The position numbers were made by a program, and so were the translations under genes. From the NCBI GenBank assembly GCA_963666485.2, contig CAXXUO010000002.1, positions 605,466 to 669,465 of the forward strand: a DNA stretch of 64,000 nt. The letters are read 5' to 3'. Shown piece by piece: positions 33,789-57,931 of the stretch. Under the pieces are notes generated by a model. That model saw only the letters and a list, made by a program, of their open reading frames with translations, did not search any database and was not told the origin of the DNA. Origin of the DNA: Syntrophorhabdaceae bacterium. GTDB taxonomy: Bacteria; Desulfobacterota; Syntrophorhabdia; Syntrophorhabdales; Syntrophorhabdaceae. Within the stretch, counting starts at the first letter, position 1, and every line of letters begins with the position of its first letter.

Positions 33789-33892
33789 GGGGACGTCCTT
33801 AAGAAAGTAAGTAACTCGGTTAGGGGTAAAGAATGTAAGAATGGTCCATTGAGTCATTGTGGGGAGTTTCTTACTTTCTTAAGGACGTCCCC
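33789..33892. mobile_element. 104-bp mini-element with 23-bp perfect inverted repeats (GGGGACGTCC family)
   Basis: ggggacgtccttaagaaagtaag ... cttactttcttaaggacgtcccc. Confidence 0.85.
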
Positions 33893-44182: not shown

Positions 44183-44297
44183 CCTTTTAAATGCTTGGAT
44201 GACCGTAAGGCCCGCAGACTCGCGGACCGTCCCATGTTTCAGGTCTCGGACCATCCCATCCCCGTCATCCCGGTGCTTGACACCGGGATCCAAGGTT

Positions 44298-44783
44298 CTA
44301 AAGCTTTGGCTCCACGATATATTCTCGTACAAGTTTCTCCTGCAAATCAGTCTCGACCGCACCCGGGATATAGCGCCGCACCCATCGTATCGCCTCATCC
44401 CCGGACAATCCCAGCAAGTGCCTCGCCATGCATGCCATGAAAGTCCCCGTCCTCCCCTGCCCCGCGGAACAGTGAACGACGACATTCCGGCCGGACAGGG
44501 CATGCTCTGTCACCTCATCGATAACCCGCCTCAAAGCAGCAACATCAGGCGTCTCATAATCCTCTACCGGCAGCGCCACAACTTCGAACCCTTTCTCCCT
44601 GTATATACGGTGCAGGTCCATCCCCGCCTTCTTCTCGCACTCCTCGATACTGGCAAGGGGGACGACAACCGAAATGTTATTTTCAATAAATTCCTGCAGC
44701 GCCGTTCTCTCGGGATCGTGTTCGCCGAAGGGCATGGGGCTGCGGTATATCTTGCCTTTCAGTTCGAACGGTATGATCGTCAT
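44298..44783 (-). CDS. Dual-specificity/tyrosine phosphatase
   Basis: P-loop VHCSAGQGRTG; PVED; AVET..Q. Confidence 0.9.
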   Translation of the reverse strand: MTIIPFELKGKIYRSPMPFGEHDPERTALQEFIENNISVVVPLASIEECEKKAGMDLHRIYREKGFEVVALPVEDYETPDVAALRRVIDEVTEHALSGRNVVVHCSAGQGRTGTFMACMARHLLGLSGDEAIRWVRRYIPGAVETDLQEKLVREYIVEPKL

Positions 44784-44818
44784 GGTTCACGTCTCCTTTC
44801 TTAATTTCCCGTCAATTA

Positions 44819-45157
44819 TTATCGTGCAACCGGCAGGGACCGGACGTACTCGCACCATGCCCGGCCAAATTCCAGGTACAGCGCCAGCCGCACGAGACCG
44901 GCCCGCGTGTAGGAGCAATAATTATAGGACGGCATGAAGTGCAGCGTCGCCGTCTGCATAAGCGCATCCAATTCCTTTTGCTCGTCACCGAGCCTTTCCC
45001 AGTGTTTTCCCATGAGGACGAACAACTCCTCCATATCGCAGATACCGAACCGGGCGAGGTCGTCTACCAGCAGCATCTCGTCCCTGCGATCTGAATATAG
45101 GCAGGACAGATAGTCGAGATAGCCGGTCAATGTGTCGAAGGTGAGTTTTCGTCCCAT
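44819..45157 (-). CDS. Hypothetical protein
   Basis: 112-aa ORF; 5' region duplicated at 48099-48192. Confidence 0.55.
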   Translation of the reverse strand: MGRKLTFDTLTGYLDYLSCLYSDRRDEMLLVDDLARFGICDMEELFVLMGKHWERLGDEQKELDALMQTATLHFMPSYNYCSYTRAGLVRLALYLEFGRAWCEYVRSLPVAR

Positions 45158-45313
45158 GGGGAGATTATATCATGGGGAGGTGACAACAGGGTGGCAGGGA
45201 GTGGATTTGAGATTTATGGTTCAGCGGTTACTTAATCTCTTAAGAACGTCCCCCAAAATCATTACAGAGTCCGCCGAGAAACGCGAAAGGGCCGGCCGAT
45301 CCGGAAGTGTTCC

Positions 45314-46501
45314 CTAGTTTTTTAGTCCGCTTTTGAAAAATGCAATTATTTCCCGGGGGTCGTTCTTGAAAACGGTCCCCATCATCCCGAGCGGGACAAC
45401 GCCGATCCTTTTGTCGGCAGGGTATGCGTGGATACCGGGGTAGACCACGAAAAGATGATCGAGCCCGAGGGAGTCGATCGCCACATGCATGGACCTCGTG
45501 ATCTTTGGCGCCTCGTTGAACTTCATCTCGAAGGCGTATCGCTTTCCCCCGTGAAGCAGGAAAAGGTCAACCTCTGCGCCGCTGTAGGTGGCCCAGAAAT
45601 AGGCCTCAGACGGTTTCAGGGACATCAATACCTGTTCGATAGCAAACCCTTCCCATGAAGCCCCGACCCGCGGATGGCCAAGAAGCTCCTGCCGGCTGCC
45701 GACGCCGAGCAGCGAGTGCAAGAGCCCCGTATCACGCAGGTACACCTTGGGCGCTTTGACCTGTCTTTTCCCTATGTTCTCATGCCAGGGCTGCACCTGG
45801 CGGAGCATGAAGGTCCCGGCGAGAATATCAAGATATGAACGGACCGTTTTGTTGGAAAGGCCCATCGACCGTGCCAGCTCGGATGCGTTCCACACCTGGC
45901 CATGATAATGGGCGAGCATGGTCCAGAAGCGCCTCATCGCCGCCGAGGGTATAGTGATTCCCAGCTGCGGGATATCGCGCTCGAGAAATGTGCGGATAAA
46001 GCCCTCGCGCCAGGCGATACTGTCGGTATCCGAAGCGGCAAGGAACGAACGGGGGAAACCTCCCCGCAGCCATAGCTCGTCGAGCCTTTCCCGCCCGATC
46101 TCCGACAGATCGAAACCTGAGAGCTCAACAAATTCAACCCTGCCAGCGAGCGTCTCCGATACTCTTCGAACCACCTGCGGCGAAGCGCTCCCCAGGACAA
46201 GGAACCGGGATGCGGCCCCGGGCCTGTCCGCCAGAACCCGAAGCGTTTTGAACAGGTCCGGCATAACCTGTATCTCATCAATAACGATGAGGCCCGCCAT
46301 AGAACCAAGGACGAGTTCGGGATTCTCCAGCCTTCTTGCATCGGCCTGCGACTCGCAATCGAAATAGGCGGCGCCCCTGGTATCGCCGAATTGACGTGCG
46401 AGAGTCGTCTTTCCACATTGCCTGGGGCCGAGCAGGGCCGTAACGGGAGACCTCCCGCAGGCCTCGGTCAATCTCTCCATATATGCCGGCCGATGGATCA
46501 T
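45314..46501 (-). CDS. AAA_14 ATPase with DUF4143 C-terminal domain
   Basis: GPRQCGKTT, IVIDEIQ, ETLAGR, RGGFP, KVYLRDTG, AEVD..FEMK. Confidence 0.92.
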   Translation of the reverse strand: MIHRPAYMERLTEACGRSPVTALLGPRQCGKTTLARQFGDTRGAAYFDCESQADARRLENPELVLGSMAGLIVIDEIQVMPDLFKTLRVLADRPGAASRFLVLGSASPQVVRRVSETLAGRVEFVELSGFDLSEIGRERLDELWLRGGFPRSFLAASDTDSIAWREGFIRTFLERDIPQLGITIPSAAMRRFWTMLAHYHGQVWNASELARSMGLSNKTVRSYLDILAGTFMLRQVQPWHENIGKRQVKAPKVYLRDTGLLHSLLGVGSRQELLGHPRVGASWEGFAIEQVLMSLKPSEAYFWATYSGAEVDLFLLHGGKRYAFEMKFNEAPKITRSMHVAIDSLGLDHLFVVYPGIHAYPADKRIGVVPLGMMGTVFKNDPREIIAFFKSGLKN

Positions 46502-46513
46502 GGGAACATATTA

Positions 46514-46930
46514 TCATTGAATATTGGGAGTGTCAATCCCAATATTCAAGGAAACATGTGGTTTCAAGTTCCAGAAAAAGGCAGAAAAAGACTTCCTCCC
46601 CTGCCCCGCGGAGCAGTGGACGACGACATTCCGGCCGGACCGCGCATGTTCTATCACCGCATCAATGACCCCGCTCAAGGCCTCCACCTTCGGCGCCGCA
46701 TAATCCTCCACAGGCAAAGCAACAACAACGAACCCTTCATCTTTGTAAAGCCAATGCAGGTCCCTCCCGGCTTTCTCTATGCACTCCCCGACGCTGGCGA
46801 GGGGGACTATGACGGAGATGTCATTTTCGAAACATTCCTGCAAGACGGTTCCCTCGGGGTCGTAGGTGCCGAAGGGCATGGGGGAGCGGAATATTTTGCC
46901 TTTTAGGAGGAAAGGGAGGAGGGTCAGCAT
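46514..46930 (-). pseudogene. Second phosphatase copy, truncated right after the P-loop
   Basis: Matches 44298-44783 up to HCSAGQGR, then unrelated. Confidence 0.8.
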
Positions 46931-47094
46931 TTTTCTCCGTTTCGAAACGAGAAGGGCTTTTAGCGAATTATATCACCTTTTTAGTTTGGAGATATTCACA
47001 TATTCAAGGACGTCCCGGCGCTCCGCGGCGCTCCGTTTCCTCGTTCTGTTCGTGAATGCTACCATGAAATTCTAAAGTGACATGTTCGATTTTC

Positions 47095-47157
47095 ATGGTG
47101 TATTTCCGGGCCACCCGCAACAGTGCTGAGATCGACCTCCTGTTGATCAAGAATGGC
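47095..47157 (+). pseudogene. Fragment of DUF4143 ATPase C-terminus
   Basis: YFRATRNSAEIDLLLIKNG vs YFWATYSGAEVDLFLLHGG. Confidence 0.55.
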
Positions 47158-47218
47158 ACGATACCCGGCGAAGATGCCTCCGACTGCAGTGACCATATTC
47201 GGCATCGTGTTGCGCCTG

Positions 47219-47704
47219 TCAGTCATGGTCCTGTTTTGGCTCCCGCATCGAGGGGGCCGCTGTCAGCGCAGCCGCGATGGAGCACAGGGCCAAAACTACG
47301 ATGGGGACACCGAATACCACGGGTAGCGCGGCCAGCGGACTCATTATGCCTCCTCCGCTTGCGGTGCTGCGTTCCGCGGCGCGCATGGCATGGACCCCCG
47401 CAACCACGGCCAACGTGCCGGGCACCAGCATAACGCCATGCGTGATCAGAAGGGCACGGCGAAACCACGGGCGCAGCCTCCACACCCAACGGCCCAGCAC
47501 GATCATCCAGAGACCGAGCGATCCGAACGGGAGGGCGTAAACAGCGGCCATAAGCAAGGCCCCGGGTAAAGTTGTCCATAAGGTTCCGGAAGACAGGTGC
47601 GGCAGGACCCGAAGCATACCCGCCCCAAAGCATGCCGCGACAGCGAGAAGTGCGAGCCCCCATACAAAATGAAGCAGTGCCAGACATCTGATTACCCATT
47701 TCAT
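47219..47704 (-). CDS. Four-TM membrane protein
   Basis: Four hydrophobic segments. Confidence 0.65.
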   Translation of the reverse strand: MKWVIRCLALLHFVWGLALLAVAACFGAGMLRVLPHLSSGTLWTTLPGALLMAAVYALPFGSLGLWMIVLGRWVWRLRPWFRRALLITHGVMLVPGTLAVVAGVHAMRAAERSTASGGGIMSPLAALPVVFGVPIVVLALCSIAAALTAAPSMREPKQDHD

Positions 47705-47914
47705 GAGACGTCCCGATGTCACCCTTCAGGAGCGACGCGTTTGGCGGCGTCCCCCGCGGGGGATTGTTCGACCTTTGTCTCTCTCCATCGTCCCCATAGC
47801 GTGGGGCAAGGCCTTGCCCTTGCAATGCAGCATTTTCTTGACCTGACCTTTCTTAGACTTTCCTGCTGATTCGCAGCCTCTCATAGACAAAATGTATGAG
47901 TGCAAGACTTGACG

Positions 47915-47986
47915 GCCGTGGGTGCCGAAGGGTATGGGGGAGCGGTATATCTTGCATTTTAGGCGGGAAGAAAGGAAGGCCAGCAT
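47915..47986 (-). pseudogene. Third phosphatase copy, N-terminal ~24 codons only
   Basis: MLAFLSSRLKCKIYRSPIPFGTH; upstream region near-identical to 46925-47020. Confidence 0.75.
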
Positions 47987-48298
47987 TTTTCTCCGTTTCG
48001 AAACGAGAAGGGCTTTTAGCGAATTATATCATCTTTTTGGTTTGGAGATATTCACATATTTAAGGACGTCCCGGCGCTCACTCGTCCCGGCGCTCACCCA
48101 GATAGTCGAGATAGCTGGTCAATGTGTCGAAGGTGAGTTTTCGTCCCATGGGGAGATTATATCATGGGGAGGTGACAATAGGGTGGCAGGGAATGTATTC
48201 CAGATCGGGTGCTGCGTGTTGTGTATTTTAATTGAGGAACATCCCTTTGGATTCGCTTTTCGTGTTTTGTTGGGAACGTCCCCGGTCCCCTTGCGTAT

Positions 48299-49222
48299 TT
48301 AAAAACGGTTCATGTCTCTGTGATATTGCAAGTAATGTTTTTGTGAATTTGTAAAGCTTCCAACATTCATACCAGGATTCAAGTTCCAGCTGACCATCAC
48401 TTGTTTGATTTCATTGTTGGAACATAATATTCTTCCGTGGTCAGTAAATGATATCCAGCCTCGGTCAAAAAGTCTGTCGACGTGCGGGGATAGCAATAGA
48501 CCATTCTCACCATCCAATTTCTCAATATTATTCGAATTTCTCCAGGGTTTTATATGACTTGCTATCAATAATCTTTTATCAGTAATCCCCGTTAACCTAC
48601 ATTTGTTTTCGACATGCTCTAGACGTTGACGAAACAAACCTTGACCGACTCGAGCCTTGATCAATTGCTCTTTTTCGGTCTCAGGAATTCGATCATTTCT
48701 AATGTTTTCTTCGATTATATGGTCCATTATATTTATCTGAAATTCTGAAATATAGTCTGAAATATCATGATTATTAAGTCTGGAAATATCAAGCATTATA
48801 CGACCTAATTCGTTGCTAATCTTAGCGAGATAACAACTTTGGTTTCCATCTCCCGTTGTTCTTATCGGGGAATACTGAGTAGGCAATAAAGGGGCTATTT
48901 TCCCTATAAAATCTTTTGGTCTGAAAGGACGTTCAAGCGGTTGCCAGTCAATTTCTACTAACCATCCATTCTCCGACCATTGTTCGCCTACCTCACCAAA
49001 CTCTGAGGGTCTAGGATACTCAATAAATTTCTGAGTTATTACCCCAATCGCCCTGATTTTCCCATGCGCATAGGAAAAAATAATATCGTTAAGCTGGGCT
49101 TCCGTAAGATTCAAATAAGTCTGGTTTCTGGAACCACCTCTATTTGCCTTGGGAGACCAAATATAGCCGCCATGAATTTCCTGATCATGAGTTTGGCTAT
49201 GGTTAACCCACCAGTAATTCAC
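48299..49222 (-). CDS. HNH endonuclease with N-terminal EVE/PUA-like domain (candidate modification-dependent restriction)
   Basis: MNYWWVNHSQT...GGYIWSP; ARVGQGLFR, CRLTG, ASHIKPW, NGLLL.PHVDRLFD; AT-rich. Confidence 0.85.
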   Translation of the reverse strand: MNYWWVNHSQTHDQEIHGGYIWSPKANRGGSRNQTYLNLTEAQLNDIIFSYAHGKIRAIGVITQKFIEYPRPSEFGEVGEQWSENGWLVEIDWQPLERPFRPKDFIGKIAPLLPTQYSPIRTTGDGNQSCYLAKISNELGRIMLDISRLNNHDISDYISEFQINIMDHIIEENIRNDRIPETEKEQLIKARVGQGLFRQRLEHVENKCRLTGITDKRLLIASHIKPWRNSNNIEKLDGENGLLLSPHVDRLFDRGWISFTDHGRILCSNNEIKQVMVSWNLNPGMNVGSFTNSQKHYLQYHRDMNRF

Positions 49223-49595
49223 TTTAATCTATCCTTTAATGCTCTTATTTACCCTATATATTCCCTATACTCCTTACTCATTTTAATTTCAAGGAAATAA
49301 CTGACAGGCAAATCGATCAACGCTTGGAGCAGAGAGGGAATGTGCCAATATCTTGGCCCTTGCTGTTGGTAGGACCTCTCAACACCCGGCTTCATCCCGA
49401 AATAGGGAATGAGACACCAATGTCTCGTTCTCAATCCCAGGAGTCAACCGGGCCGGAATGACCAACGGGGTATGGATTCCCGCTTTCGCGGGAATGACGG
49501 AGGACGGGCAGCGAGGATAAATATAGATTTACTTAATTTATACTTTTTTTAAAACCTTGGATCCCGGTGTCAAGCACCGGGATGACGGGGCAATT

Positions 49596-50892
49596 GGGGA
49601 CGTCCTTGAATATGGGCAATTGGGCAATTGGGGACGGCAATTGGGCAATTGGGGACGTCCTTGAATATGTAAATATGCGGGACTGGGGACGTCCTTTAAT
49701 ATGTGAATATCTTGACCCTTGCTGCCCTTGCTACCGGTCGAGTGCGTCAACATCCGGCCCTATTCCCATTCAAACATGCGATGGCCAACGGCTTTTTTTC
49801 GATCCTTGGGTCCATTTTTCACACCAAAAAGTAATATCCCCATAACACCAATACCCATCTTTCAAGGAGGCTTCGATATGCCCCGTCATGCCCGTATTGA
49901 TGCTGCCGGTGTCCTTCAGCATGTTATGGTCCGTGGAATAGAGAGAAGGAGTATATTCAGGGACGCAGGGGACAGGGACGACCTCATAAGGCGGCTTTCC
50001 CTTCTTCTGCCGGAGACAGGAACTGCCTGCTACGCATGGGTGTTCATGCCAAACCATGCCCACTTCCTCTTAGGGAGCGGCCAATCGGGGGTGGCGAATC
50101 TTATGGGAAGGCTCCTAACGGGCTACGTTGTTTCTTTCAACAGGAGACATAAAAGAGCCGGACAGCTATTCCAGAATCGTTACAAGTCCATCATCTGTGA
50201 TGCAGAAGGCTATTTCAAGGAACTGGTACGCTATATTCACCTCAATCCTGTACGCGGCGGCATTGTCAAAACGATTGAAGACCTTGATGCGTTCCCCTAT
50301 TCGGGGCACGGTGCGCTTGTGGGCGGGACGGACATCCCCTGGCAGGACACGAATTATGTCCTCCGCATGTTTTCGGGCAACGAAGCCAGGGCACGGAAAG
50401 CCTACCGCGCATACATCGAGACCGCCCTGCACCAGGGCAGGCTGGACGACCTGTCCCGGGGCAAACTTGTCAGCAGCCTTGAAGGATGGACGGATATCAA
50501 GGGCGTTGACCGCAGGGTCAAGGGGGACCAGCGCATCCTGGGCGATATCGATTTCGTCACGAGGGTCCTCAGGCAAAGTGAAGGTGCGTTTGAGCGAAGG
50601 CTCATTATCAGGAGCAAGGGGTATACAATCGATGTGGTAATAGATATCATTGCTGCCATGTACGGTATTGCAAAGAACGATATCTTATCTAAAGGGCGGC
50701 ACCCGCGGAGGGTTGAAGCGCGGAGCCTGTTTTGTTATGTGGCATCCCGCGATCTGGGAATATCCGTGACAGACCTTGCCAGACTCATAGGCATGACACC
50801 TTCAGCGGTAACATGTGCGGTGGAACGAGGTAAACGTATCGCGATAGAGAAACATTTCAAGTTGGGATATTGACATATTCAAGGACGTCCCC
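49596..50892 (+). mobile_element. Y1/HUH transposase unit bounded by GGGGACGTCCTTGAATATGT inverted repeats
   Basis: Left copies at 49596, 49651, 49685; right copy 50873-50892 abutting the stop codon. Confidence 0.8.
49878..50873 (+). CDS. RAYT-like Y1 tyrosine transposase with C-terminal DnaA-C-like HTH
   Basis: HVMVRGIERRSIF, MPNHAHFL (HUH), GQLFQNRYKS, RYIHLNPVR, C-terminal ARSLFCY..IS...LAR. Confidence 0.92.
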   Translation: MPRHARIDAAGVLQHVMVRGIERRSIFRDAGDRDDLIRRLSLLLPETGTACYAWVFMPNHAHFLLGSGQSGVANLMGRLLTGYVVSFNRRHKRAGQLFQNRYKSIICDAEGYFKELVRYIHLNPVRGGIVKTIEDLDAFPYSGHGALVGGTDIPWQDTNYVLRMFSGNEARARKAYRAYIETALHQGRLDDLSRGKLVSSLEGWTDIKGVDRRVKGDQRILGDIDFVTRVLRQSEGAFERRLIIRSKGYTIDVVIDIIAAMYGIAKNDILSKGRHPRRVEARSLFCYVASRDLGISVTDLARLIGMTPSAVTCAVERGKRIAIEKHFKLGY

Positions 50893-50917
50893 GGTCTCGT
50901 TAAGCTCCTCTATGCGC

Positions 50918-51823
50918 TCACCAAGAAATGTTTCCCTTACTCTGTTCGTGCCAGTGCTTTGTTATATCAAACCAGAAAACAATCGGGCCATAAATTCCAA
51001 ACGCCTTGTATCTCTTTGCCAGAAATGCCGGCAACGCTTTCGAATCTATCCCCCACATTTCCCTACAACGCCTGGCCACGTAAGAATCGATGTTGAAACC
51101 TTTTGGTTTCCAGTACACGAGGGAGAGGTAGCTGGCAGATGCCGGGCCAATCCCCTTGTTTCCGATCAACATGTCATAGAAGGGCTCGTTGTCCAGGCAC
51201 TTCCATTCCCTTCCCAGAAAATATCCTGGCTCAGACAAGGCACGCCGGGCAATACCGACGATATACTTCGCCCTGAACCCACAGCCTGTTTCCGCTTTCA
51301 GCCCGTCCTCCCCGGCTTTCAGCAGTGCTTCCGGTTTGGGAAAAGCGCGATATCTGCCGACCTTCATGCCATATACATCCACCATCCTGGCGACCATCGT
51401 CTCTGTCCTGTCGAAAGTAGTGTTGGTCGAGCATATTACCTTACAGCAGTCTTCGAAGAGCGTCGGCGATCGCAGAAATCTCCCCATGTTATTACTGGAC
51501 AGCCAGCCCCATTTCTTACCGGAATGCTTGTAAAGAGCTTTCGGGGATACGTCCAACGATAGGCAATCGCAAGCGACATTCATGCAATGCGCCAAGGCTC
51601 CATGGATGGTTTTCAGTTCGCAATGTCCGTCTGTTACAGCCACTTGGAACACACCGCTGCCTTCCGGCAAGGCATAAGGCACGGTGAGCCTGTGCGACTC
51701 AATGTCGACATTGAAAGGCTTTAGCGAAAACCATCCGTGGGAAAGTATCGTCGCCCGAAATTCGGCGGCAGTAATGGATTCAAGACAGGTCACGCGTAAT
51801 AACCTACAGGCAATGCAACACAA
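50918..51823 (-). CDS. HhH-GPD DNA glycosylase (Ogg1/AlkA-like); start uncertain
   Basis: FPKPEAL, GFRAKYI, KGIGPASA, NIDSYV. Confidence 0.82.
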   Translation of the reverse strand: MCCIACRLLRVTCLESITAAEFRATILSHGWFSLKPFNVDIESHRLTVPYALPEGSGVFQVAVTDGHCELKTIHGALAHCMNVACDCLSLDVSPKALYKHSGKKWGWLSSNNMGRFLRSPTLFEDCCKVICSTNTTFDRTETMVARMVDVYGMKVGRYRAFPKPEALLKAGEDGLKAETGCGFRAKYIVGIARRALSEPGYFLGREWKCLDNEPFYDMLIGNKGIGPASASYLSLVYWKPKGFNIDSYVARRCREMWGIDSKALPAFLAKRYKAFGIYGPIVFWFDITKHWHEQSKGNISW

Positions 51824-52318
51824 AGGAAAGGTTTTTTGCGATCAAGACATTGTATTGGCCAGAGCCTTCGGATGCCTTCTTCAATTCAAGGTGATCCATT
51901 CTTGCCCCCCTTGGAGCCGCCTGTAGTTATCGAGCAACTCACTGAGCGGTAAACTGCACCCCTTCTTGATGAAGCCAAGGAAGGCAACGAAGACGTTGAA
52001 TTTTCCCTTTTGAAGACGCTAGATTCCCGCTTTCGCGGGAATGACGCAGGGGGAACAGGGAGGATAAATGTGGGTTTACTTGATTTATACTTTTTTAAAA
52101 CCTTGGATTCCGGTGTCAAGCACCGGGATGACGGGTACAGGGGTACAGTGTGGGTTACCGTTTTCGCCGGAATAAAAGGTCTTTGCAGACATTGATTCCA
52201 GCTTTCTTGGGATGAAGCCGCGGTAGTTGCAGAGAGCGGGCGGGTTGGCGCCCGCTCTCTGATCACAACTCGGCGGATCGGAATTAATGGCTTTGACGAC
52301 CCGGCCCGAACCTGTTCA

Positions 52319-53596
52319 TTACTTGGCTTTCCACCCCTCGAATTTCCCGCTGAAGAAGTCGATGTTCCGGTATCCCAGCATGGTCAGGACCGTGTACGTG
52401 TGGGTCAATTGGAAGCCGGCGCGGGCGTAGATGATGACGCGCTTGTCGGGCGACAGGCCCGCCTTTGCGTACATGGCGCTCAATTGGTCCGCCGGGAGCA
52501 AAGTGCGGTTGGCGTCGAGGGTGTCGTTCCAGAAGACGTTGACTGATGTCGGGATGTGGCCCCAGTCGTAGTCGGCCGGAGAACGGACGTCGAGGATGAC
52601 GACGGTCTTGCGGTTGTCATCGATCGCTGCCTGCAGCTCCTTTCGGTCGACGAAGCGCGGACTCGTCTTGCTGCCGCTGAAGGCGGACCCGAAGGTGTAA
52701 TTCAGCAGGGAGGTCTCCTGCTTCATGTTCGGCTCGCGGCTCCATTCGTCCCAGCTGGGATCGTAGAAGACGATGTTCTTGTAGCCGAGATTGCGCATTG
52801 CCAGGAAGTCGTTCGCCGCGTAGACGCCGCTGCCGCAGTAGGCAACGATCTGCTTGGTGCCGTCAACGCCGGCGCGTTGGAATATGCGCCTAACCTCGTC
52901 GATGGGTTTGAGCTTGCCTTGCGTCATAAGCGAGGATTGCGGCACGTTCTGCGCTGTCGGAACGTGGCCGTCGGCATAGGCAGACGGGTCGCGGCAGTCG
53001 ATGATCGTCGCATCGGCCGCGCCGATCTTCGAGGCGACATAGGCCATGTCGACCCGCGGGTCGCTCTTCCGGGTCATGCGGAAGTTGCTGGGGACCACAC
53101 TCACCGGTGACGTGCTGAGCTGGCCGGTCCACCCCTTGATACCGCCGTCGAGCACGTGGACGCGCCCGCCGAACCCGGCATATTCGAGCAGCACGTAGGC
53201 CCGGCCCGGCAGTGCGCTCGTCTCATAGATGAGCAGGGTATCGCTGTAGGTGAGGCCGGCGGCGGCTATCGCGCCCTCGATCACCTTATCGCTCGCGAAT
53301 TCGTTGCGGATGCCGTTCGCCTCACCCACGTTCATTGCCCGCCACGGGAAGCTGATGGCGCCCGGGATATGGCCTGCGGCGTAGTCCTTGCCTGAGCGCA
53401 GATCGAGGACCTTGGCGCCGCGCGCGACCAGCGCCTGGGCCTGGGCCGCGGAGACAATGATGGGCATGTCGGAAGCCTGCGGCGGTGCTGCTTCTACGGG
53501 AACAACCAGCAGGCTCGCCAAGAAAAGACAGGCGGCGACCAATGCCATACCCAGGCACAGCCCTTCGCCGTGAACGCGTTTCAGAGAGAATTTCAT
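52319..53596 (-). CDS. Exported three-domain rhodanese/sulfurtransferase
   Basis: Three DxR...GHxP units, YCGSG, YDPSWDEW; signal peptide. Confidence 0.9.
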   Translation of the reverse strand: MKFSLKRVHGEGLCLGMALVAACLFLASLLVVPVEAAPPQASDMPIIVSAAQAQALVARGAKVLDLRSGKDYAAGHIPGAISFPWRAMNVGEANGIRNEFASDKVIEGAIAAAGLTYSDTLLIYETSALPGRAYVLLEYAGFGGRVHVLDGGIKGWTGQLSTSPVSVVPSNFRMTRKSDPRVDMAYVASKIGAADATIIDCRDPSAYADGHVPTAQNVPQSSLMTQGKLKPIDEVRRIFQRAGVDGTKQIVAYCGSGVYAANDFLAMRNLGYKNIVFYDPSWDEWSREPNMKQETSLLNYTFGSAFSGSKTSPRFVDRKELQAAIDDNRKTVVILDVRSPADYDWGHIPTSVNVFWNDTLDANRTLLPADQLSAMYAKAGLSPDKRVIIYARAGFQLTHTYTVLTMLGYRNIDFFSGKFEGWKAK

Positions 53597-53830
53597 GACT
53601 CCTCCTTCGACATTGAATTGATAAGAATTTGCTTCTGACAATACTATAAGGTCCCCCGTTTTATCGCGTCAAGCGGTATCTCTGATCGAAATCAGGGGGG
53701 AGGTGGGGACGTTCTTAAGAAAGTGGAGATCGGGGACGTCCTGAATATGCCAATATCCTGGCCCTTACAGTTCACTGATAGCGGGGGACGACCAGGGAGC
53801 TCCACCGTGAAGAGCAGCGGAATCCCCGTA

Positions 53831-54385
53831 TCATGCCCCTGCCTGCGGGACACCCCCAAATCGTGCGACAAAGCCCTGGCCGGCTAAACCCGTGGAAGAC
53901 GGGGTTCCGGCTATCGTGGCAAGGTACGTACCGTCCAGATCCTTGATATGCTTGGCCACATTGTCGAAGTAGTTGTAGTGTATCTGCTCTTCGTCGATGA
54001 TCAGTTCAAAAAGCTTCGCACTGATGCTGTCGCCGTTCTCCCTGCAGACAAGCAGGAATTCATTATAAGAGGCAATCGTATTGTCTTCGAGGTTTGCGTC
54101 AAAGGGAAAGACTTCCTCAACCTTATGACCTTTTATGGCTTTTGCTGCAGAATCTACGGTCGGTTGACCACCCAACTCTTCAACCCGGTCTGCAAACTTC
54201 TCGGCGTGGCGCATCTCATCAAGCCCCACGAGCTTGAGCTTCATTGCAAAATCTCCGTAATCCATATTATCCAGATTATAGTGCTGGTTCATGTACTGGT
54301 GGATAGCGTGCAGTTCCATTGAACGGGCTTTGTTCAAAACCTCGATGACATTTGCTTTATTTTGTTCCCTCTTGTTCACGGCCAT
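53831..54385 (-). CDS. bfr: Bacterioferritin
   Basis: ELHAIHQY, DEMRHAE, LEDNTI, DEEQIH ferroxidase pattern. Confidence 0.9.
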   Translation of the reverse strand: MAVNKREQNKANVIEVLNKARSMELHAIHQYMNQHYNLDNMDYGDFAMKLKLVGLDEMRHAEKFADRVEELGGQPTVDSAAKAIKGHKVEEVFPFDANLEDNTIASYNEFLLVCRENGDSISAKLFELIIDEEQIHYNYFDNVAKHIKDLDGTYLATIAGTPSSTGLAGQGFVARFGGVPQAGA

Positions 54386-54677
54386 CGTACTCCTCCTTTA
54401 CCTAAAGCTGCTATTTAATAAGTATATGCGTGAAACTGCTACCCGTAAAGGACGCTGCCCGCCGGGAAAGCCTTTCAGACGGGCCCGAATTTCTCCCGGA
54501 CAGGGATCGTCGCGGACGTCCCCGGTCTCCGTCTTCATATGTGAATATCTTTCCCCTTGCTGCCCAGGAGTAGGGGGAGGTGGGAGATACTCTTTTCGGA
54601 GGCAAGCAATTTCTATTGTCATGATCGGCACGATTTGCAAGAATGTTCTGGAAACAGATAAATTCGGGAGGAAACCA

Positions 54678-55199
54678 ATGGTAAGAATTGTTATGCATCG
54701 GGCCTTTGCGAGTGAAATTATCAAAACAACATGTATTGCGGTGCTCTCCATCCTTCTTTTCATGGTCCTTGCATATGAAGCCGGGGCATACAATTCGGCC
54801 CACCTTCAGAAACTCAGCAGTACGAAGACGTGTACGGAATACGATCTCACCGGTATGTCTCATGCAGGCTCAAGAATGATAAAATTTGATATGTCCCGGT
54901 CGAATGCAAGCAAATCGTCGTATAACGGGGTAGATCTATCCGGGGCGGCATTGATCGATACCGATTGCACCGGTTCAGCGTGGCTGAACACAAAACTGGT
55001 GCACGCAACCCTCTACGGCGCTAATTTTACGAAAGCAACGATGGCCAACGTTGATTTCACGGGGGCGATCCTGCGTGACGCCAATTTCACCGGAGCGGCG
55101 ATGATGAACACGAAATTCAACGGGGCGGACCTGAGCGGAGCAACATGGACGGACGGCGCCAGGTGCCGGGAAGGGTCAATGGGTCAGTGTCTGGAGTGA
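54678..55199 (+). CDS. Pentapeptide-repeat protein
   Basis: VDLSGAALID, ANFTK, VDFTG, ANFTG, ADLSGATWTDG..C. Confidence 0.88.
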   Translation: MVRIVMHRAFASEIIKTTCIAVLSILLFMVLAYEAGAYNSAHLQKLSSTKTCTEYDLTGMSHAGSRMIKFDMSRSNASKSSYNGVDLSGAALIDTDCTGSAWLNTKLVHATLYGANFTKATMANVDFTGAILRDANFTGAAMMNTKFNGADLSGATWTDGARCREGSMGQCLE

Positions 55200-55375
55200 T
55201 CCAGGAGAGACCGGGGACGTCGTTGAATACGTCAATATCTTTGGGTTTCGACGCCGGTCTAACCCCTCGTCATCCGGCTTTATCCCGAAACGGTCAGGGG
55301 AGGACGGGGTCCTGCTTGACTTTCACACGGAACAGTGATACACGTATTTACGTGACATCAATAAAGGAGGTTCAC

Positions 55376-55621
55376 ATGGAGAGGCAGAATGTTACGTTGT
55401 CCCTTCCCAAAGCACTTCTTAAGAAGGCCAAGACCCTTGCCGTTATGAACGACAAGTCCTTGAGCGATTTCCTGCGCGAGACCCTCGAAGAAAAGGTGGC
55501 CGGGGAGACGGGATACCGGAGCGCCAGGAAGCGGCAGGCAGCTCTCATGGATAAGGGCTTCGACCTGGGAACCGGGGGACACATATCTGTCAAGCGGGAT
55601 GAACTGTATGAAAGGCGATAG
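55376..55621 (+). CDS. RHH-type antitoxin
   Basis: RQNVTLSLPKALLKKAK...SLS...RDELYER. Confidence 0.88.
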   Translation: MERQNVTLSLPKALLKKAKTLAVMNDKSLSDFLRETLEEKVAGETGYRSARKRQAALMDKGFDLGTGGHISVKRDELYERR

Positions 55622-56045
55622 GTTCTTTGTTGATACGAACATACTTGTCTATTCATATGACATATCGGCCGGAGACAAACATACTGTAGCAAAGGACGTT
55701 CTCAATGAGTTGTGGGAGGCGGGAAATGGCCTTATAAGCACGCAGGTCTTGCAGGAGTTTTTCGTTACGGTCACGAGGAAGATCTCTAAACCGATGGAGG
55801 TCGCTGTCGCGAAGGAGATCGTAAAAGACCTTCTGAAGTGGAAGGTCGTTACCGTGAGCGGCGGTTTGATACTGGACGCCATCGAACTCCAGCAGAAATA
55901 CAGATACTCTTTCTGGGATTCTCTCATCATCGCCTCAGGCATTCATGGAGGCGCGTCGACGATACTGTCCGAAGATCTGGCGGATACACAAAAGATAAAG
56001 GGCGTTGTGATCAGAAACCCCTTCTCTGCCCTGTCGAAGCGATAG
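55608..56045 (+). CDS. PIN-domain (VapC-like) toxin
   Basis: FVDTNILVY, STQVLQEF, SFWDSLI, LSED, NPF. Confidence 0.93.
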   Translation: MKGDRFFVDTNILVYSYDISAGDKHTVAKDVLNELWEAGNGLISTQVLQEFFVTVTRKISKPMEVAVAKEIVKDLLKWKVVTVSGGLILDAIELQQKYRYSFWDSLIIASGIHGGASTILSEDLADTQKIKGVVIRNPFSALSKR

Positions 56046-56234
56046 ATCTCCCAATCTCCATCTCAGCCCGCGAACCATTCCGTTAAAGGCCATGACTCCT
56101 TGGCCCACAAAGGCCCTGGGGTCAAGTCTTGCGATATCACATTTCGCGGCTTCAGGCCTTTTTCTAAACCGCTCCTTGATTGCCGGTTTTTCATGCAAAA
56201 AAGCGATAATGCAGGACGGGGTCCTGCAATAACG

Positions 56235-57596
56235 TCACCGCGTACGCGCGGGGTATTTGCCTCGTTTTGCTTTGCCGTGCCGTTTTTTTGCGGGGGACGG
56301 GGTGGTGGGACCGGTTGGCGGGGATGCGCTTGTCTTCGGCTTTGACGGTGTGAGGCCGCGCGGCTTTGAGTGCGGCTCGCGGGGCGGAGATGGCCGCTGC
56401 GGTTCCGGGGCGGTCCCGGGTTTTTGTGGCGGCCTTGGCGGCCTTGAGGACGCGGTGTTGCGGTCGGGGGGCGGCTCCCTGTAATCGAAGCCGTCGAGGG
56501 TGCGCCTTTCTATCTTTGCGCCCAGCAGGCGCTCGATGCTCGCGACCTGCTGTTCGTCCTCTTTGCTGATGAAAGTAAAGGCGTCTCCCGTCTTCGCCGC
56601 TCGGCCGGTCCGGCCGATCCGGTGGGTGTATGCGTCTGTGGTGTCGGGCATATCGTAGTTGATGACGTGGGAAATGCTCAGCACGTCGATGCCGCGGGCG
56701 GCTATGTCGGTTGCCACGAGGACCTGGTACGAACCGTTGCGGAAGCCGTCGAGGGCCTCCTGGCGCCTGTTCTGCGACAGGTTCCCCTGGAGCGACGCGG
56801 CGGTGTGCCCGGCTTTCTGCAGCTCCTGGCCGATCTTTTTCGCCCGGTGCTTTGTCTTCGTGAAGATCAGTATCGATTCCGTGTCCGTCTGCTTGAGCAG
56901 TTCCATGAGGAGCTTTGTTTTCAGATGAGGGGCGACGGGATAGAGCGCGTGGGATACCGTGTTGGCGGGGGCGGTGTGGCCGACCTTCACCGTAACGGGA
57001 TCTGTCAGCACTTCATCGGTCAGCTTCCTGATGCTGTCGGGCATGGTGGCGGAAAACATCAGCGTCTGCCGTTTTGCGGGGACCTGCTTGATGATCCTCC
57101 TGATGTCGGGGAGAAAGCCCATGTCGAACATCCGGTCGGCTTCGTCGATGACGAGGATCTCGAGGTTTGCGAGATCTATCGTCCTCTGGCTCAGGTGATC
57201 GAGAAGGCGCCCCGGGCAGGCTACGATGATATCGACGCCGGCGCGAAGCTTCCTGATCTGCGGGTTCACCGCTATGCCGCCGTAAATTGCGCAGCTTTTC
57301 AGGTGCGTATTGCGCCCCAGTTCGCCGATCGACACGTGTATCTGTTCCGCCAGCTCGCGTGTCGGTGCGATGATCAGGGAGCGGACCCTGCCGCGGGGGC
57401 CCGGAAGCAGGTGCTGAATGATGGGCAGCACGAACGCTGCCGTCTTGCCGGTCCCGGTCTGGGCAAGGCCCATGACGTCTTTGCCCGCCAGTACGGGCGG
57501 GATGGCCTGGCGCTGAATGTGGGTCGGGACGTCATAACCCAACGCTTTGATACGTGTCTCGATCTGCGGGTGAAGCTTGAACGAACTGAAACTCAA
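56235..57596 (-). CDS. DEAD-box RNA helicase (RhlE-like)
   Basis: AQTGTGKT, PTRELA, DEAD, SAT, ARGID, HRIGRTGR. Confidence 0.96.
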   Translation of the reverse strand: MSFSSFKLHPQIETRIKALGYDVPTHIQRQAIPPVLAGKDVMGLAQTGTGKTAAFVLPIIQHLLPGPRGRVRSLIIAPTRELAEQIHVSIGELGRNTHLKSCAIYGGIAVNPQIRKLRAGVDIIVACPGRLLDHLSQRTIDLANLEILVIDEADRMFDMGFLPDIRRIIKQVPAKRQTLMFSATMPDSIRKLTDEVLTDPVTVKVGHTAPANTVSHALYPVAPHLKTKLLMELLKQTDTESILIFTKTKHRAKKIGQELQKAGHTAASLQGNLSQNRRQEALDGFRNGSYQVLVATDIAARGIDVLSISHVINYDMPDTTDAYTHRIGRTGRAAKTGDAFTFISKEDEQQVASIERLLGAKIERRTLDGFDYREPPPDRNTASSRPPRPPQKPGTAPEPQRPSPPREPHSKPRGLTPSKPKTSASPPTGPTTPSPAKKRHGKAKRGKYPARTR

Positions 57597-57931
57597 TGGC
57601 ACCTTCCTTGGTGAATATTTATTTGGCAAGTTATGATCTTTATTGTCGGTCAGGGTGAACGGTTTGGACGAACGGTTTACAGCTGACGAAGTCTCATGGA
57701 GCCTTTGATCATGAATGCCCGAACACTATAAGCTTATTTCCCGCCCCTGTCAACCTGTTCAGCGACAGGGGGGGGATTTAAGGGACGCTCATCAATAGCT
57801 GGAAAAGGAGAAGAACTGTGGCACCGGGCGGAAAATCTAAAGCCTGGCTGGCCGGGCGGATACGTCTGAAAAAAGACACTGGATCCCGGCCTCCGCCGGG
57901 ATGACGGAAGGGGGACGGGGAAACGCGGGAC

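Follow-up and report, generated by a model that had tools for sequence, protein, structure and literature searches.

A TIRYT Gene Between Long Inverted Repeats

We analyzed a 64-kb stretch of a Syntrophorhabdaceae genome (the window, C2:605466-669465; positions without a contig name are counted within it) from an assembly of 3.77 Mb in 10 contigs with 55% G+C. A gene at 49878-50873 on the forward strand encodes a TIRYT, a RAYT-like transposase of 331 aa, and stands between terminal inverted repeats (TIRs), the arrangement called a TIRtron; further repeat ends are scattered among the neighboring genes from 45.2 to 55.2 kb. The protein consists of a Y1/HUH nuclease domain, a linker and a helix-turn-helix (HTH) domain resembling DnaA domain IV. 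In Pfam, Y1_Tnp matched residues 14-121 (E 6e-8, weak at 33 bits) and Bac_DnaA_C matched residues 251-316 (33.8 bits, cut-off 31.5), the HTH region spanning about 246-325, and the NCBIfam family REP_Tyr_transpos (NF047646) scored 61.7 bits, under its cut-off of 80. The HUH motif (H60/H62) and the catalytic Y102 were invariant in an alignment of 25 homologues. An AlphaFold (AF2) model built on this alignment had a mean pLDDT of 81.6, with the linker (187-216) disordered or poorly modelled; its top structural match was the E. coli RAYT (4er8_A; E 3.9e-6, TMt 0.72), followed by TnpA chains of IS200/IS605, and its C-terminal fold matched 1j1v_A, DnaA domain IV on DnaA-box DNA (TMt 0.71; root-mean-square deviation 2.1 Å over 79 columns). 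A profile of the 25 homologues also found DnaA domain IV (E 7e-5) and, weakly, 4er8 (E 0.49), although phmmer with the single protein found no match among PDB sequences. DnaA domain IV uses an arginine in the minor groove and a base-reading helix; R282, invariant in the family, aligns with that arginine, and the base-reading helix aligns with a variable stretch of the TIRYT.

The genome holds just one other TIRYT gene, at C1:678809-679798 (mutual identity 46%). No classical RAYT gene was found in the genome by profile and NF047646 searches, the latter scoring 64 and 54.9 bits, again below 80. A PF01797 search of the whole genome returned nothing at E ≤ 0.01, though hmmscan of the 331-aa protein matches the family; this null reflects a sensitivity limit, and the search was replaced by the homologue profile and NF047646. 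In genus relatives (for example G018:C10:163105-163659, G006:C32 and G012:C55), we observed frames of 283-342 aa that match the TIRYT profile over residues 1-186 only, and these may represent a sister group with another C-terminal half.

The initial annotation of this DNA had placed inward-facing repeats around the transposase gene, and a repeat finder confirmed a 27-nt inverted repeat there, with arms of 27-34 nt that are 88-100% complementary (96% for 49651-49676 and 50867-50892; 100% for 49596-49614 and 50874-50892). The right arm begins 0-7 nt past the stop codon (50871-50873): the right TIR (50866-50898, reverse strand) comprises 27 nt plus the outer flank GAGACC and touches that codon. 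On the left, the innermost TIR (49685-49727, forward strand) consists of the 27 nt GGGGACGTCCTTTAATATGTGAATATC, one mismatch away from the type-B 27-mer described below, and a left-end-specific extension TTGACCCTTGCTGCCC. Two more left-end copies precede it in tandem on the same strand (49596-49614, 19 nt only, and 49651-49677), with the flank words GGGCAATT iterated between them and a bare GGGGACG at 49630-49636. The second TIRYT gene has the same layout of one repeat downstream and three to four in tandem upstream: it has one type-A repeat downstream and four upstream, and the window gene has one type-B repeat downstream and three upstream. As a single strand, the right end showed no significant self-fold on either strand (z +0.8 and +0.9). 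Because a single repeat does not fold, the repeats are neither REP (repetitive extragenic palindromic) hairpins nor ends of the IS200/IS605 type; a search of 30-58 kb found no Rfam family at gathering score.

The TIR-flanked layout recurs across the family. At least 481 relatives of the 331-aa protein were confirmed among species-representative genomes, including Desulfobacterota, Nitrospirota, NC10, Chlorobiaceae and others. We fetched 80 loci with a five-sequence alignment and analyzed the 68 that had enough flank. An inverted repeat of 18-35 nt beginning (G)GGGACG flanked the gene in 49/68, typically 56-61 nt before the ATG and just past the stop codon; 11/68 had no inverted repeat and 8/68 had short spurious ones. 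The core GGGGACG[TC] is common to 49 related loci. Close orthologues in the genus, whose carriers are labelled uncultured Syntrophorhabdus (locus L015 being contig G015:C4), show the same ends.

Relation to Published Elements

RAYT-like genes between long TIRs were described by Di Nocera, De Gregorio and Rocco (2013; PMC3733652), who named the element TIRtron and the enzyme TIRYT, and Quentin, Siguier, Chandler and Fichant (2018; PMC6006769) equated the TIRYT with subclass 2.1 of TnpA_REP, whose members end in Bac_DnaA_C or another HTH domain. The locus is a TIRtron with a subclass 2.1 TIRYT, an element class with its own repeat families that, going by the portions of these two papers available to us, had already been described and that the initial annotation missed; by domain content alone the protein would fall into subgroup 2.1.2. 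The available text on TIRtrons agrees with the locus in several respects, namely a RAYT-like gene with long non-hairpin TIRs that start G-rich, repeats that occur as singles, dimers and groups, and several gene/repeat pairs per genome. According to that text, many TIRtron repeats share GGGGWSAS and form families of single, dimeric and grouped copies. The repeat here starts GGGGACGT, of which positions 1-6 fit that motif and positions 7-8 (G, T) do not; since the same text states that other TIRs carry no GGGGWSAS at all, we regard the mismatch as a variant motif. Subclass 2.1, as far as the accessible part of PMC6006769 describes it, likewise comprises long Y1 proteins with a C-terminal Bac_DnaA_C or HTH domain, and its authors point out that the repeat motif is unlike a DnaA box.

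RAYT/REP-REPIN systems (E. coli TnpA_REP, 4er8; Nunvar 2010; Bertels and Rainey 2011), to the extent that the consulted text covers them, provide the closest fold and share with the locus the few genes with many short non-coding repeats and the gene flanked by its own repeats; the inverted dimers of type-A repeats (103-nt spacing) resemble REPINs. In contrast to REP repeats, which are palindromic hairpins of 20-40 nt with GTAG, the single repeat here forms no hairpin and has no GTAG, and the protein is twice as long, carries an HTH and stays below the REP_Tyr_transpos cut-off. The IS200/IS605 enzymes (IS608 and ISDra2 TnpA) share the Y1 HUH fold with one catalytic tyrosine, and the conserved short end motif may, by analogy, be the counterpart of their cleavage/target tetra- or pentanucleotide; their ends, however, are asymmetric subterminal hairpins without TIRs, whereas those described here are symmetric 27-nt inverted repeats without hairpins. 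Set against the available accounts of TIRtrons, what is new here is the dense cluster in a toxin-antitoxin (TA)/defence island, an orphan third repeat type, co-variation of HTH and repeat, and duplications that end after GGGGACG.

Three Repeat Types in the Genome

The 10-mer GGGGACGTCC occurs exactly eight times in the window (33789+, 33883-, 49596+, 49651+, 49685+, 50883-, 53732+ and 54514-) as against 0.34 expected, a number reached in 0/100 shuffles, and the palindromic core GGACGTCC occurs 11 times as against 1.56. The sites could in principle be a favored word, GGACGTCC with its GACGTC hexamer, that has no tie to the enzyme. The 8-nt core is perfectly palindromic, and 22 of the 67 genomic GGGGACGTCC words are without the TT found next to it in genuine repeats, half of these 22 lying within open reading frames (ORFs). 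The remaining 45/67 are followed by TT and belong to the repeat families, and the sites resemble one another over 27-33 nt, a similarity seen 0 times in the reversed genome. Since the repeats also flank both TIRYT genes and the homologues at 49/68 loci, a chance palindrome is contradicted and hardly credible. The proposed tie between the sites and a Y1/HUH enzyme thus held, the second gene having a repeat variant of its own.

We scanned the genome for 27-mers with at most 6 mismatches, using the reversed genome as the control. Type A (GGGGACGTCCTTAAGAAAGTAAGTAAC) has 43 copies and type B (GGGGACGTCCTTGAATATGTGAATATC) has 14, with 0 in the control for each. A third type, C (GGGGACGTTCGTTAAAAAGTAA), has about 6 copies and is an orphan, without a gene of its own in this genome; its cognate gene is present in a relative (locus L048). 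The 10-kb stretch around the TIRYT gene contains seven of the 14 type-B copies, plus an eighth with a 1-nt deletion; another four are grouped in a second cluster, at C1:193.6-196.7 kb. Including partial copies, 12 sites fall within 45.2-55.2 kb, compared with 57 confident sites in the 3.77 Mb of the genome. Copies of types A and B lie outside ORFs in 51/57 cases, although a greedy ORF map covers 87.6% of the genome. The genome-wide scan that had been proposed shows copies that cluster locally and lie mostly outside ORFs.

Type-A copies are often inverted dimers at 103-nt spacing within a 275-bp unit present about 10 times. One such dimer, MITE-like (resembling a miniature inverted-repeat transposable element) and cognate to the C1 gene, lies in the window (33789-33892) and folds as one long hairpin (z -8.5). 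The 275-bp composite (C1:272392-272667 and nine other places) joins a conserved 150-bp part to a type-A TIR dimer, with 92-99% identity among its roughly 10 copies; blastn found none in 19 genus relatives.

Co-variation of Repeat and Protein, and Duplications at the Repeat Core

For 44 gene/repeat pairs, we compared the divergence of repeat positions 6-24 with that of the protein domains. Repeat distance tracked HTH distance (Spearman 0.58), with lower values for the Y1 domain (0.41) and the middle part (0.30), kinship being still contained in all three. The partial correlation for the HTH given Y1 was 0.47, a value reached in 0/500 label permutations; the converse was 0.18 (1/500). In the accessible text, the authors who defined subclass 2.1 reported no REP-like sequences near the genes and left target recognition by the HTH open; our co-variation, drawn from sequence comparison, argues for recognition of a DNA target by this domain.

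Duplications in which flank plus partial repeat precedes flank plus full repeat numbered 28 in the sequences examined, as against 1 in the reversed control. The partial copy terminates directly after GGGACG in 10/28, including cases in the unrelated genomes L066, L077 and L085. When measured without a lower length bound, 5/18 end after exactly 7 nt and the other 13/18 are spread over ten other lengths of 3-30 nt, with at most 2 cases each. The duplication boundary is where the family-invariant core yields to the variable arm.

We also observed tandem iterations of 5-16 nt of outer flank plus GGGGACG ahead of a full end, at 49588-49650, 48064-48100, C1:703372, C1:703626, C4:210741 and in L066, L077 and L085; their flank words differ from place to place.

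Repeat Ends Among the Genes of a Variable Island

All of the weaker sites that had been listed for 45.2-55.2 kb are present, with some corrections: 45227 and 53705 belong to another subfamily (GGGGACGTTCTTAAGA..., at 45227-45253 and 53705-53724), 48274 and 54514 consist only of the 10-nt core plus an outer flank GRGACC, and the copy at 49596 is cut at 19 nt. The first site (45227-45253, reverse strand; GGGGACGTTCTTAAGAGATTAAGTAAC) is a solo repeat upstream of a 112-aa ORF (44819-45157). A solo type-B repeat (46991-47017, reverse strand, 1 mismatch) lies 61 nt upstream of the phosphatase start at 46930 as part of a 166-nt module that is duplicated at 47914-48079; in the duplicate, the repeat (48047-48073, reverse strand, 2 mismatches) is accompanied by a truncated phosphatase start, and the iterations of its outer flank CGGCGCTCAC include a partial core. 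A core-only remnant (GGGGACGTTCC, 48274-48290, reverse strand; outer flank GGGGACC) follows 16 nt from the HNH stop codon. A left-end extension remnant without an intact core (72%) lies on the forward strand at 49337-49368. Beyond the TIRYT gene, a partial type-A-like repeat (53705-53724) abuts a type-B left end with a 1-nt deletion and extension (53732-53773), both on the forward strand and together forming a paired site (53705-53773). A composite site (54514-54565) joins core plus right-end-type flank (54514-54530, reverse strand) to a degenerate left end with extension (54534-54565, forward strand, 91%). Lastly, a solo right-end-type repeat of 33 nt (55207-55239, forward strand), 94% complementary to 50866-50898 and with 3 mismatches to the type-B 27-mer, lies upstream of a vapBC-like pair. 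The recurrence of the extension motif was likewise confirmed, at 49337, 49696, 53742 and 54534. The sites had been called always intergenic, which fits 51/57 genome copies; two of them, 48047 and 55213, overlap long ORFs of a crude ORF map (47922-48302 and 55145-55621), ORFs that we judge doubtful.

The genes between the sites are, by Pfam, as the initial annotation had named them, except that it had omitted a DSP-type phosphatase gene (46514-46930, reverse strand) from the segment of the AAA_14/DUF4143 ATPase (45314-46501, reverse strand). The others are an HNH_2 endonuclease (48299-49222), an HhH-GPD glycosylase (50918-51823) and a triple rhodanese (52319-53641), all on the reverse strand; a ferritin-like gene (53831-54385, reverse strand) that is the sole copy in the genome; a pentapeptide-repeat protein (54600-55199, forward strand, start uncertain); and a PIN (VapC-like) toxin (55599-56045, forward strand) preceded by a small ORF. 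A single gene of the region, at 56235-57629, is conserved in the majority of 40 relatives. The sites lie, as had been claimed, between accessory genes, in what is a variable TA/defence island; TA and defence-type genes are found in the island both here and in the relative G013. Similar repeat clusters occur elsewhere in this genome (G000, C1:191-197.5 kb) and in the relatives G013, G015 and G007.

Paralogues of the DSP-type phosphatase and the 112-aa ORF recur as small modules (44298-45157, 46514-46930, 47914-48205, G007:C9 and G009:C61), each preceded by a repeat end and a box like TGATATAAT, which at one place is just about 7 nt ahead of the ATG.

Variation Among Relatives

Relative G013 is collinear with 40.5-49.2 kb of the window at four anchors, and the content between the anchors differs: there, six repeat ends in the same orientation lie among HEPN/NTase, ParE, Gp49/HTH and PDDEXK genes. 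The 166-nt module (repeat, promoter-like stretch and phosphatase start) and a 107-nt module are each duplicated in the window, and relative G007 has tandem copies of the same two modules. In relative G015, four internally deleted copies of 313 bp and a full gene form a head-to-tail series interspersed with small ORFs. A second inverted-repeat word, GGGACATCCTGTAGTCCTCC, was seen 4-5 times in the cluster of this contig (L010, G015:C4, 2154-6185), where two small ORFs and a 313-bp miniature element lie between the arms of one of its inverted pairs (4796/6156). The comparison with relatives that the initial annotation had called for gave a divided answer: clusters do coincide with differences in gene content, module duplications and synteny breaks, but the relatives' copies of five genes were without sites (see below).

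The gene itself occupies different places. An orthologous element in G002 (84% nt identity) lies in a region syntenic with C1:196.8-205.5 kb of this genome, where only solo type-B and type-C repeats are found; because the syntenic region here holds solo ends only, the element has moved or been lost while solo ends persist. The flanks of the G007 orthologue map to two different contigs of this genome. Within the genus, full-gene copies range from 0 (in the 100%-complete G003) to 4, plus many fragments, and this patchiness indicates mobile-element behavior. At 53705/53732 and C1:196755/196727, ends of differing subfamilies abut in the same orientation, which fits insertion next to existing ends.

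These data also bear on the idea that the repeat serves as an operator or promoter, bound as duplex by the HTH of a partly or wholly domesticated transposase that would thereby control the accessory genes beside it. Six sites face the next gene start at 61-144 nt (45253 toward 45157, 47017 toward 46930, 48073 toward 47986, 54523 toward 54385, 55213 toward about 55358, and the three tandem copies toward their own gene), and an extended -10-like TGATATAAT, read by eye, lies between repeat and gene in two modules. Co-variation of HTH and repeat would suit such a role, and domestication of RAYTs has been argued for (PMC5581495, in the part available). On the other hand, few sites are available for this comparison, and whatever is intergenic is necessarily upstream or downstream of something; at least three sites (53732, C1:194710 and C1:196744) face 3' ends of genes, and a consensus promoter scan gave 20 sites as against 9.2 expected, none of them at the repeat-proximal positions picked by eye. 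The patchy occurrence of the gene, which the complete G003 lacks, and its presence at different loci in close relatives are again what a mobile element would show. We consider a mainly regulatory function very unlikely.

The Repeats Do Not Travel With the Neighboring Genes

The initial annotation had proposed that the enzyme captures and shuffles genes at these sites, giving an integron-like array. In this explanation, the TIRYT would act in trans on paired dispersed ends to move or duplicate the enclosed genes, building a cassette-like array. Enzymes of the IS200/IS605 type are known to mobilize any DNA flanked by their left and right ends. Head-to-tail arrays of ends are interleaved with gene segments of 0.8-1.5 kb in G015 and here, and two inward-facing pairs enclose non-transposase genes, the ferritin gene (53732/54514) and a 248-aa ORF (C1:191244-192126, L013 4245-5127) between type-C repeats at 191244/192103. 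The latter, which has no Pfam match, is genus-specific, with homologues in 15/19 genus genomes (up to 4 matches each) and multiple copies in G014 and G016, and stood in a different context in 4/4 relatives examined. The differing content between the collinear anchors of G013, with its six same-orientation sites, and the duplicated repeat-plus-gene-start modules here and in G007 could be read in the same way.

The central prediction, that each cassette includes its site, nevertheless failed. None of the five genes tested has repeats beside its copies in relatives, and homology ends 26-83 nt short of the sites. Ferritin homologues in nine relatives (85-86% nt identity in G010, G017 and G018; 65-75% amino-acid identity in six outgroups) had no repeats nearby, with homology (53809-54472) ending 42-49 nt before the sites. 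A vapBC homologue in G014 (88%) had no repeat within 6 kb, the HNH homologue of G013 and the ATPase homologue of G007 were without repeats, and type-C repeats accompanied the 248-aa homologue in 0/4 relatives. The sites are thus unlike attC, the relatives' copies of the genes being without them. The ferritin neighborhood differs in every outgroup, with or without repeats, and of the right-hand site in the ferritin pair just the core is left; inverted pairs account for a minority of the sites here, and no site-bounded segment was found twice in different contexts. In a scan of ±6 kb at 49 family loci, 30 had only the two terminal copies, 13 had more (with reliable copies >0.7 kb away in 8/13), and 6/49 gave one match because the automatic pattern choice missed the repeat; with terminal repeats only at 30/49 loci, arrays are not a property of the family. 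As a candidate for movement, we considered the ferritin gene, which in G010 and G017 adjoins a homologue of C1:905106-905681 and in this genome does not; this relocation says nothing about the repeats, since six outgroups each have other neighbors.

The likeness to integrons (IntI, attI, attC) is superficial, lying in short site-like repeats between small accessory genes of a variable region. Here, a Pfam scan of 15+8 ORFs (43.9-56.0 kb) found no IntI tyrosine recombinase, the sites neither adopt an attC-like fold nor travel with genes, genes lie on both strands without a common promoter (at least some having promoter-like sequence of their own), and site orientation is mixed.

Sequencing data were available as Logan contigs from four runs of one sample; a fifth run of raw reads under the same species label lacked the stretch. 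The contigs of three runs contained no alternative joints at the sites, a weak result given that contigs drop rare variants, and they cover the element from end to end (49561-52134) as well as 53342-57471, from ferritin to vapBC. Joints were present only at REP hairpins (44287/44292, 49551/49558 and 52013), with sides of 21-37 nt, that is, assembly-graph repeats. Because contigs hide rare forms, this null is no evidence either way on rare excision.

The integron-like inference was therefore not upheld, although the underlying sequence observation and the link between enzyme and sites stand. We rate gene capture as unlikely. A related proposal, in which TIRYTs act in trans on orphan ends and pair neighboring ones to duplicate, delete and relocate the TA, nuclease and phosphatase modules between them, is likewise improbable; if true, the clusters would be a transposase-driven platform for shuffling defence islands, with an integron-like outcome brought about by a HUH nuclease guided by a DnaA-type HTH.

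Probable Origin of the Cluster

The explanation that we favor, with a probability of roughly 70%, is that the locus is a TIRtron whose scattered repeat ends accumulated in a variable TA/defence island. The unit is about 1.2 kb long and consists of one TIRYT gene, with its RAYT-like Y1/HUH nuclease and DnaA-domain-IV-type HTH, and 27-nt TIRs starting GGGGACG; the other sites of 45.2-55.2 kb are solo, truncated or composite ends without a gene, of type B and two sister subfamilies. The data show this anatomy and the fold, the recurrence of the architecture in the family, the pairing of each gene with its cognate repeat, the non-coding placement and local clustering of the sites, and the different position that the orthologous element has in a relative. 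Such an array may have arisen by repeated insertion of TIRtrons and internally deleted (MITE-like) derivatives beside existing ends, followed by deletion and recombination between copies, neighboring gene modules being duplicated and rearranged along the way. In this process, the HTH would recognize the repeat's variable 20 nt in duplex form, the Y1 domain would nick directly after the conserved GGGGACG, and clusters would grow as ends attract new insertions.

Several points weigh against the accumulation of TIRtron ends as set out here. The co-variation may be due simply to the HTH evolving faster, together with shared ancestry, label permutation leaving the phylogeny in. In the duplications, the smallest length detectable by the 28-case measure was 6, and the GGGGACG mode consists of few and partly related cases, three of the five being in this genome and two in locus L077. 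Mapping the flanks from G002, G007 and G015 here, and searching the genus for window 31-37 kb, gave no clean pair of filled and empty sites that would define the true element ends, the target site and any target duplication. The nearest left repeat lies 193 nt from the ATG, compared with about 58 in most relatives. Extra copies within ±6 kb are absent at 30/49 family loci, which weakens the proposed insertion next to existing ends, and the aim of six solo sites at the 5' end of the next gene is not what a pure debris model predicts. In the literature searched, where the name itself is rare, we found no biochemical study of any TIRYT.

Other Repeats and Base Composition

A separate family of REP-type hairpins is present at 49548-49590, adjoining the left end, with copies at 44260-44302 and 52094-52135 (z -3.5). 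Its members have the tag CGTCAT[CT]CC, a stem-loop such as CCGGTGCTTGACACCGG and a T-rich tail, and also occur in the window at 49475-49590 and 52022-52135; genome-wide, the tag matched 468 times, compared with 8 in the reversed genome. Such a hairpin lies within 150 bp of 7/22 TIR loci as against 2.76 for random non-coding positions (6/300 draws reach 7). We treat this link as a lead only; the tag consensus cCGTCAT shares just CGTC/GACG with the repeat core.

The genome also contains 250 tandem arrays of heptamers, apparently all intergenic (AACCTTG x57, AACGGCT x43, AACGTGG x34 and others; for example C1:272700-272800 and C2:249040-249100). An association with the TIR repeats was considered, as 8/22 repeat loci have an array at <300 bp compared with 0.7 for random positions, and rejected, since the random positions were 88% coding and the excess is unconvincing. 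GC skew is negative over 650 kb of the contig and positive in the last 14 kb, turning at the TIRtron (window about 50000-52000, C2 about 650-655 kb); on C1, a skew minimum near 1.02 Mb coincides with a DnaA-domain-IV match taken as dnaA. We draw no conclusion from this turn, because only 14 kb of contig lie beyond it and the minimum on the dnaA side is on another contig.

Significance

TIRtrons are widespread, as the relatives among species-representative genomes indicate, and this genome offers a natural test set for them: two intact genes, distinct cognate repeats that share a core, an orphan third type, MITE-like dimers and dense clusters. Two statements can be tested directly, namely that the repeat's variable 20 nt are what the DnaA-type HTH recognizes and that the nuclease cuts directly after GGGGACG. 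If the clusters mark rearrangements made by the enzyme, they would represent a new route by which defence islands are remodelled; otherwise, they would be an ordinary graveyard of insertion sequences.

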